Source: a virus (lineage: Duplodnaviria > Caudoviricetes). Taken from it: a DNA stretch of 64,000 nucleotides. Shown piece after piece: positions 25,264 to 25,343 of the stretch. A model generated the notes under the pieces. The model was not told the DNA's origin. It saw nothing but the letters and a program-made list of their open reading frames with translations, and searched no databases. Location: IMG/VR virus record IMGVR_UViG_3300032038_000037, positions 1 through 64,000 of that record; one strand, given 5' to 3'. The stretch's first letter is position 1. The number at the start of each line of letters is the position of its first letter. The position numbers and the translations under genes were made by a program.

Positions 25264-25343
25264 TGGAGATGGGGAGATTTGAACTCCCGTCCTTAACAGT
25301 CCACTTTGGGTTTAAGTTAAGTCGAACACCCTATCGCATCCCC
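25264..25343 (-). ncRNA. Mini-tmRNA: tRNA-like domain only
   Basis: GGGGATG/CATCTCC-A acceptor with G3.U70, GG..TTCGAC loop, short P2 TTAAC/GTTAA, GGAC-GGGAG-TTCAAAT-CTCCC. Confidence 0.8.

Follow-up and report, generated by a model that had tools for sequence, protein, structure and literature searches.

A tmRNA homologue reduced to the tRNA-like domain

An 80-nt gene in an uncultured cattle-rumen phage is, by homology and covariation, a bacterial tmRNA homologue cut down to the tRNA-like domain (TLD). This mini-tmRNA is a genuine, conserved and accessory phage gene, and it adds both a member and a recognisable subfamily to a type published once before, in phage DS6A. The window analysed, a stretch of 64,000 nucleotides, is part of a 99,276-bp IMG/VR virus record that is estimated to be 84% complete. 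The phage is siphovirus-like and low in GC (~32%), with tail, ligase, gyrase A/B and UvrD-type helicase genes, and the sequencing runs that contain the stretch are bovine-gut metagenomes.

The initial annotation had placed an 80-nt tmRNA lacking an mRNA-like domain at 25264-25343. The element is real at these coordinates, and lies on the minus strand, where with its trailer it forms an 83-nt stretch from 25343 to 25261 (Table 1). Alignment to the tmRNA model bore out the description of its parts, with G3:U70, A73, the stemless D-loop ending in UUCGAC and the GGAC before the T arm all present. The 5-bp P2, the 18-nt loop and the lack of a tag frame and of pseudoknots had also been described correctly, and P2a reaches 6 bp when the closing C:G of GAC/GGAC is counted, as in the Rfam consensus structure. 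With only 18 nt between the P2a strands, no tag frame, resume codon or stop codon was found in the mini-tmRNA; the insert is too small for the pseudoknots PK1-PK4, and RNAalifold gave three helices and nothing further. CCA is not encoded at the 3' end.

Table 1. Position and anatomy of the mini-tmRNA gene and of neighbouring elements in the window
Feature	Position	Strand	Remarks
Mini-tmRNA gene (TLD only)	25264..25343	minus	80 nt; G1 = 25343, discriminator A73 = 25264; RF00023, R1, covariation
Acceptor stem, 5' strand GGGGAUG, G3 at 25341	25337..25343	minus	pairs with 25265-25271
Acceptor stem, 3' strand CAUCUCC, U70 at 25267	25265..25271	minus	G3 pairs with U70
Stemless D-loop CGAUAGGGUGUUC + GAC = CGAUAGGGUGUUCGAC, ending UUCGAC	25321..25336	minus	matches Rfam consensus GG..UUCGAC
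P2a, 5' strand UUAAC	25316..25320	minus	compensatory changes in 6/6 helix pairs including C23:G
18-nt loop UUAAACCCAAAGUGGACU with subfamily motif AA..CC.AAGUG	25298..25315	minus	motif invariance
P2a, 3' strand GUUAA	25293..25297	minus	covariation
GGAC junction before T arm	25289..25292	minus	GGA pairs with GAC in Rfam model
T arm GGGAG-UUCAAAU-CUCCC	25272..25288	minus	4/5 pairs compensatory in relatives
3' trailer UCA instead of CCA; U after discriminator	25261..25263	minus	sequence
Array of 14 tRNAs with the mini-tmRNA	17043-25425	minus	ARAGORN; no tRNA-Ala in set
tRNA-Met(CAU), 7 nt upstream of mini-tmRNA	25351..25425	minus	ARAGORN; Rfam 57.1 bits
ROOL RNA, 38 nt downstream of mini-tmRNA	24621..25222	minus	RF03087, 327.9 bits
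Twister-P1-like ribozyme upstream of tRNA-Met	25725..25789	minus	56.4 bits, gathering 67.2, E 5e-12
Promoter-like TTGAAA-17-TATAAT (11/12)	25995..26023	minus	consensus scan only; regional site count no higher than in shuffles

An alignment with Rfam and a run of ARAGORN had been proposed as checks. The Rfam tmRNA model RF00023, which has a gathering score of 47 bits, matched 25261-25343 on the minus strand end to end with 51.2 bits (E 2.9e-17 for the 64-kb window). This alignment runs over model positions 1-374 and skips 308 internal positions, and all upper-case TLD consensus positions of the model are kept in the mini-tmRNA. ARAGORN gave no call and found no tag. An identity as tRNA-Ala was rejected, as the tRNA model RF00005 scored the gene at 27.7 bits, below its cut-off of 29 bits, there is neither a D stem nor an anticodon arm, and ARAGORN was silent. 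A match to the tmRNA_permuted model (18.3 bits, E 0.089) was caused by the T arm and is not significant. The minimum free energy of the mini-tmRNA (-24.6 kcal/mol, z -1.17) indicates ordinary stability, and the case for the gene therefore rests on homology and covariation.

The short form is neither an assembly deletion nor half of a two-piece gene

Among the findings named as undoing the annotation were an assembly deletion of a full tmRNA and a separate coding piece elsewhere, and we looked for both. To retrieve relatives we used degenerate patterns and the DNA ligase gene, which lies 3.7 kb from the mini-tmRNA; a pattern made of the exact sequence of the present copy had no match in IMG/VR. 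Seven related rumen phage contigs carry an 81-83-nt form, six of them scoring 51-76 bits and one 43 bits. In an independent bovine-gut DNA run, a 16.7-kb contig covers 24404-26000 and is free of insertions at the mini-tmRNA gene, and a contig from a second DNA run covers 25238-25450 without gaps. The short form in the relatives and the two independent DNA runs thus exclude a collapsed deletion of a full tmRNA.

We found no other tmRNA match, standard or permuted, in the 64-kb window at gathering scores, and no second RF00023 match across the whole 99-kb record. Searches at lower stringency gave no further tmRNA piece at 16.5-26.2 kb (E up to 0.1) or at 63.9-99.3 kb (E up to 0.01), so that with both the standard and the permuted models a separate coding piece was absent from the 99-kb record. 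The mini-tmRNA is missing from three complete relatives (G013, G014 and G023), which indicates that the gene is dispensable.

Selection on structure and on alanine identity

A covariance model (R1) was built from nine members of the subfamily, and 17 distinct sequences were realigned. R1 scored the present mini-tmRNA at 99.9 bits. Standard pairs occupied 99.3% of the pair cells in the 17 distinct relatives, and changes on both sides were seen in 14 of the 18 pairs. The covariation score was 0.696, compared with 0.186 in column shuffles (0/500 reached 0.696), and dropped to 0.06-0.10 when the 3' partners were slid by 1-3 columns. RNAalifold independently yielded the same three helices. One relative (G011) has GAU...AUAC in place of GAC...GGAC, replacing C:G with U:A. 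In this alignment the compensatory changes affect all three helices and span divergent phages, which shows purifying selection.

These results bear on the possibility that the gene is a functionless remnant, namely a tRNA-Ala in decay, a captured tmRNA shortened by deletion, or a piece of ssrA serving as attP. Integration in ssrA is common among prophages, which take the ssrA 3' end with them (PMC10865867), and one rumen MAG has a mini-tmRNA that is nearly identical to the MAG's own tmRNA over its last 32 nt. However, both halves of the TLD are present in the phage gene, divergent phages share the compensatory changes in its three helices, the tmRNA model scores it better than the tRNA model does, and the tmRNA TLDs of the other four MAGs with a mini-tmRNA are clearly unlike their mini-tmRNAs. 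We consider such a remnant extremely improbable, as the covariation seen in the alignment already largely refutes it. A role as attP was rejected, as no tyrosine integrase was found in the record.

Pair 3:70 is G-U in 17/17 relatives and has never changed to G-C or A-U, and A73 is likewise invariant (17/17). UUCGA does not vary among the relatives, nor do U61, U62, C63, A65 and U67 of the T-loop. According to a review, recognition by AlaRS is determined by G-U at pair 3, and SmpB contacts the deformed D arm (PMC3985003). Since the alanine identity set (G3:U70, A73) is absolutely conserved, we argue that charging is part of the selected function. This invariance exceeds the needs of a pure SmpB sponge, and sequestration alone may not be what is selected; the absolute selection on alanine identity points to an action at the ribosome, beyond titration of SmpB.

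Message-less tmRNAs are widespread in uncultured phages

Similar minimal TLDs in other phage genomes had been suggested as a further check on the annotation. A looser pattern applied to IMG/VR (GGGG, 10-16 nt, TCGAC, 12-42 nt, GGACG and a T-arm skeleton), which fixes G3 but neither U70 nor A73, matched at least 119 loci; these comprise at least 84 distinct sequences, which measure 61-92 nt up to position 73. Among the matches listed, U70 opposite G3 and A73 were both found in 119/119, and the acceptor pairs were 7/7 in one register in 118 loci and 6/7 in one. CCA is encoded in 66 of these 119 listed loci, and the P2 inserts in them range from plain 12-14-nt hairpins up to 41 nt. Another tRNA was present in only 20 fetched loci among the matches listed, and ARAGORN called 8 of the 119, 4 of them as tmRNA. 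The TLD-only type is common in uncultured phages, and standard annotation misses it. Within the literature searched, no broader published description of phage TLD-only tmRNAs was found.

The loop of the present mini-tmRNA sets it and its closest relatives apart. In eight phages that had been found independently of the motif, 9 of the 12 positions of AA(A/G)(C/G)CC(A/G)AAGUG are invariant, and the stems flanking it vary freely. A motif scan showed that AA..CC.AAGUG is carried by 19 IMG/VR loci and 6 MAG loci. It occurred in none of the 76 distinct broad-class inserts among the matches listed, which indicates that the rumen/gut group is a discrete subfamily.

Mini-tmRNAs occur beside full-length tmRNAs in Bacillota MAGs

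The subfamily pattern matched six contigs of five Bacillota MAGs, namely a rumen 'RUG' bin (two contigs), an uncultured Bacillales bin, two Christensenella bins and one more Bacillota bin. All five MAGs also contain a tmRNA of 351-390 nt that scores 105-173 bits, in each case on a different contig, and the mini form is thus additional to the normal tmRNA and not a replacement for it. In 4/5 MAGs the TLD of the mini form clearly differs from that of the own tmRNA.

The exception is a rumen Bacillota MAG (G024; L201, L209), in which the mini-tmRNA and the 3' end of the MAG's own full-length tmRNA agree at 31/32 positions over the final 32 nt; this identity could reflect a recent capture, gene conversion or a role as an attachment site. 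The full-length tmRNAs of the Christensenella MAGs (L204, L205) have unusual TLDs, in which UGCAAAU or UGCAAGU takes the place of the T-loop UUCRAnU, and UUCGAU...AAGAC that of UUCGAC...GGAC. One Halobacteriaceae MAG contig (LKNH01000096.1, L194, 3617-3662) fitted the subfamily pattern as well; R1 was silent on it at E up to 0.001, and this is probably a chance or tRNA match.

The 3' 29 nt of the mini-tmRNA were found, with up to 3 mismatches, in 3/401 Bacillota genomes and give no usable host clue. A blastn search of 24600-25450 against isolate phages gave tRNA-Met matches only and none on the mini-tmRNA, and none of the isolate phages matched a 604-aa protein of the virion region; these searches thus yielded no cultured relative or host. 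As binning is weak host evidence, we rate a Bacillota host for this phage as no more than likely.

The gene lies in an RNA island next to ROOL

The elements around the gene follow one another, 5' to 3', as promoter-like site, twister-like ribozyme, tRNA-Met, mini-tmRNA and ROOL. ROOL is probably co-transcribed with the mini-tmRNA, and the promoter-like site could drive the whole unit of twister, tRNA-Met, mini-tmRNA and ROOL. None of the 14 phage tRNAs has an encoded CCA, and in 14/14 a T directly follows the discriminator, as in the mini-tmRNA. The missing CCA is therefore a rule of this genome and not a defect of the mini-tmRNA. Such a CCA-less end with U after the discriminator suggests RNase Z-type 3' processing, for which RNase Z of B. 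subtilis is the precedent, followed by CCA addition by the host.

The order twister-like element, tRNA, mini-tmRNA recurs in three relatives (G001, G003 and G009), and in the first two of these ROOL lies directly downstream. The spacing between mini-tmRNA and ROOL in two relatives is 24 and 106 nt. In G011 ROOL is found upstream instead, in G012 it is 9.5 kb away, five relatives carry ROOL and no mini-tmRNA, and ROOL occurs in only 1/48 other viral records with a mini-tmRNA. A general linkage of mini-tmRNA and ROOL was rejected on the latter count, and together with the varied placement in the relatives it indicates that the ROOL neighbourhood is lineage-specific synteny within an RNA island.

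This placement fits earlier work, in which both ROOL and GOLLD were found in phage tRNA islands and enclosure of phage tRNAs or ribosomes was suggested, as a speculation, for the two RNAs (PMC5737381; bioRxiv 10.1101/2024.12.08.627333). This background, the short distances to ROOL here and in two relatives and the finding of ROOL in rumen metatranscriptomes are what commend a role away from the ribosome, in which the mini-tmRNA would serve as an RNase P/Z handle that sets the 5' end of ROOL, as cargo or partner of a ROOL nanocage, or as a decoy for a host tRNA-directed defence nuclease. We judge any such role improbable. The link to ROOL is confined to this lineage, the placement of ROOL shifts among relatives, some of which have ROOL and no mini-tmRNA, and a mere punctuation mark would need neither UUCGAC/GGAC nor G3:U70. 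Ordinary tRNAs do that job elsewhere in the array.

Several observations concern the other members of the island. In a bovine-gut metatranscriptome, a 532-nt contig is identical to 24656-25187 within ROOL, and a second RNA run yielded a 359-nt contig; the flanks of ROOL are not covered in these contigs, which suggests that ROOL is a stable, discrete RNA. The two metatranscriptome runs contain contigs on ROOL and on a tRNA-Met-like sequence and none over 25261-25343, short structured RNAs being rarely assembled. The twister-like element departs from the consensus in having GUCACAAG for GUCCCAAG and GAGUG for GAGGG, changes that could form a compensating A-U pair, and in three relatives the tRNA and mini-tmRNA are preceded by weaker twister matches in syntenic position (45, 40.1 and 36.3 bits). 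The element is probably a real twister variant heading an ncRNA operon. In relative G009, a group I intron-like match (L145:460-649, minus strand; 47.3 bits, gathering 50) lies between the mini-tmRNA and the next tRNA. At 47%, the GC content from 22000 to 24000 of the window exceeds the ~32% of the whole genome; long ORFs are few there, and Rfam and ARAGORN call only three tRNAs. A record of the neighbours of ROOL in rumen phages may aid work on its function.

Comparison with known tmRNAs

The initial annotation regarded message-less tmRNAs as known only from some protist mitochondria. This proved too narrow, since a list of tmRNAs published in 2014 by Hudson, Lau and Williams includes 'Mycobacterium phage DS6A (TLD only)' (PMC4131195), and a database paper from 2025 repeats DS6A and adds CDS-less plastid forms of ~65 bp from Mallomonadaceae (PMC11915505). 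The DS6A molecule (tmRNA Website tmID 11587; JN698994 28478-28560) is phage-encoded and ~83 nt long. It shares with the rumen form the G3:U70 acceptor, the D-loop that lacks a stem, the short hairpin at P2 and the T arm, and like the rumen form it is devoid of a tag frame and of pseudoknots. The rumen subfamily model R1 detects it at 54.8 bits, whereas its Rfam score of 43.2 bits is below the cut-off, compared with 51.2 bits for the rumen mini-tmRNA. DS6A has ..UCGAC / GCAC where the rumen form has UUCGAC / GGAC, its GC content is 69% and it ends in ACUA. Its gene lies between protein genes (gp33 and DNA polymerase III) and not in a tRNA array, it is without the AA..CC.AAGUG loop motif, and its host is Mycobacterium, in contrast to a probable rumen Bacillota.

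The mini-tmRNA shares the whole TLD with tmRNAs of the E. coli ssrA type (G3:U70, A73, GG..UUCGAC, the GAC/GGA junction, GGAC and the T arm). It is without the ~300 nt that hold P2b-d, the four pseudoknots, the resume codon, and the tag frame with its stop, and in the absence of a tag message, trans-translation proper, i.e. tagging, is impossible. Complete tmRNAs are encoded by 402 of 18,146 isolate phage genomes, or ~2% (PMC9004378). Those of Bxz1-type mycobacteriophages, Bacillus phage G and marine myophages such as Melnitz are often near tRNA genes (PMC4131195, PMC9004378), but they keep the tag message and are seen by ARAGORN, and neither is true of the mini-tmRNA. The tmRNAs of jakobid and oomycete mitochondria and of plastids are message-less like the mini-tmRNA and are presumed to work with SmpB (PMC11915505). 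However, each is the only tmRNA of its organelle, replacing the standard form, while the phage RNA arrives in cells already equipped with a full tmRNA.

A proposed competitor of host tmRNA

Bacteria rely chiefly on trans-translation for ribosome rescue and quality control, and the pathway is a drug target. We think it probable, with moderate confidence, that the tag-less mini-tmRNA competes with host tmRNA, so that host trans-translation is inhibited or short-circuited. We infer the transcription and processing of the RNA and its effect on tagging, and, from the conserved identity elements, its charging, its binding to SmpB and its entry into stalled ribosomes. The mini-tmRNA would be transcribed from the minus strand within the tRNA/ncRNA operon of twister-like ribozyme, tRNA-Met, mini-tmRNA and ROOL, and would be excised in the same way as the neighbouring tRNAs, by RNase P at G1 and by an RNase Z-type cut after A73 and before the U. 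What RNase P and EF-Tu need is an acceptor-T minihelix, which is kept in the mini-tmRNA. No genes for SmpB, a CCA-adding enzyme, an ArfB/RF-1-domain protein, Pth or a release factor were found in the phage, and with SmpB, ArfB/RF-1-domain protein and Pth missing, every later step would fall to host factors. A host enzyme would add CCA, and host AlaRS would charge the RNA with alanine by way of G3:U70 and A73. Host SmpB would be bound through the stemless D-loop and the GAC/GGAC junction, and the resulting complex of Ala-TLD, SmpB and EF-Tu would vie with the full-length host tmRNA both for SmpB and for ribosomes that have stalled on a broken mRNA. As the message is absent, a degradation tag could not be added, and host trans-translation would be inhibited or short-circuited during infection.

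A similar molecule was reportedly found to be inhibitory by Mao et al. in 2009, as cited in two later papers. In those papers, a molecule similar to the DS6A TLD is stated to inhibit tmRNA in E. coli (PMC11915505, PMC4131195), reportedly 'whether or not chargeable' (PMC4131195). The initial annotation had put forward two functions, an SmpB sink or alanine addition without a tag. Both are reasonable, and the first agrees with what the tmRNA curators proposed for the DS6A molecule (PMC4131195).

The same features could also serve a productive, tag-less rescue, in which the charged mini-tmRNA and SmpB accept the stalled peptide and a host pathway or a further round of rescue resolves the complex. 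Ribosomes would then be freed and phage proteins would escape the tag, and the RNA would aid translation capacity without any block on rescue. We hold this to be rather unlikely, although several findings speak for it. G3:U70 and A73 are retained in 17/17 relatives and in 119/119 loci among the matches listed, implying that charging matters; the conserved motif of the 18-nt loop could be a functional module; and the tRNA array around the gene plausibly helps phage translation. The message-less tmRNAs of organelles, moreover, are found together with organelle-targeted SmpB and are regarded as functional (PMC11915505). Productive rescue must nevertheless assume a second rescue step, because with no message the A site would be empty again after translocation, and release factor, ArfB and Pth genes were among those not found in the phage. 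In addition, the only published experiment on such a molecule is reported to have found inhibition.

If the mini-tmRNA does compete with host tmRNA, a natural small phage RNA that disarms or re-routes trans-translation would amount to a ready-made, genetically encoded inhibitor of this pathway, and it would show how phages protect their own translation. The conceptual novelty beyond DS6A is small; the value of the present findings lies in the breadth of the class, in the selection on charging and in the loop, which is unexplained.

The conserved loop of the rumen/gut subfamily

The loop motif has no role in the model of a tmRNA competitor. Two explanations for it were considered and rejected. 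A remnant of the host P2b is not indicated, as the motif is absent from the tmRNAs of the five MAGs. A loop antisense to host tmRNA was rejected since the best runs of 6-10 consecutive pairs fall at unrelated places in the five MAG tmRNAs, which leaves no consistent target in them.

We entertain, as a quite doubtful idea, that members of the loop-motif subfamily are alanine-charged, ribosome-acting RNAs in which the invariant 12-nt loop functionally replaces the message. Such a loop could occupy the empty mRNA channel or a place close to it, or could recruit a release activity, and in a bolder extension of this idea the RNA may work jointly with a co-transcribed ROOL nanocage. If true, this would be a tag-free, phage-encoded ribosome rescue that shields phage proteins from ssrA-directed proteolysis. 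In the E. coli ssrA (L192:294-656), P2a is followed by GAAACCCAAGGUG, which is similar to the phage loop UAAACCCAAAGUG (25298-25315). No such stretch was seen in the Bacillota tmRNAs examined, and the likeness of the two sequences could be due to descent or to chance.
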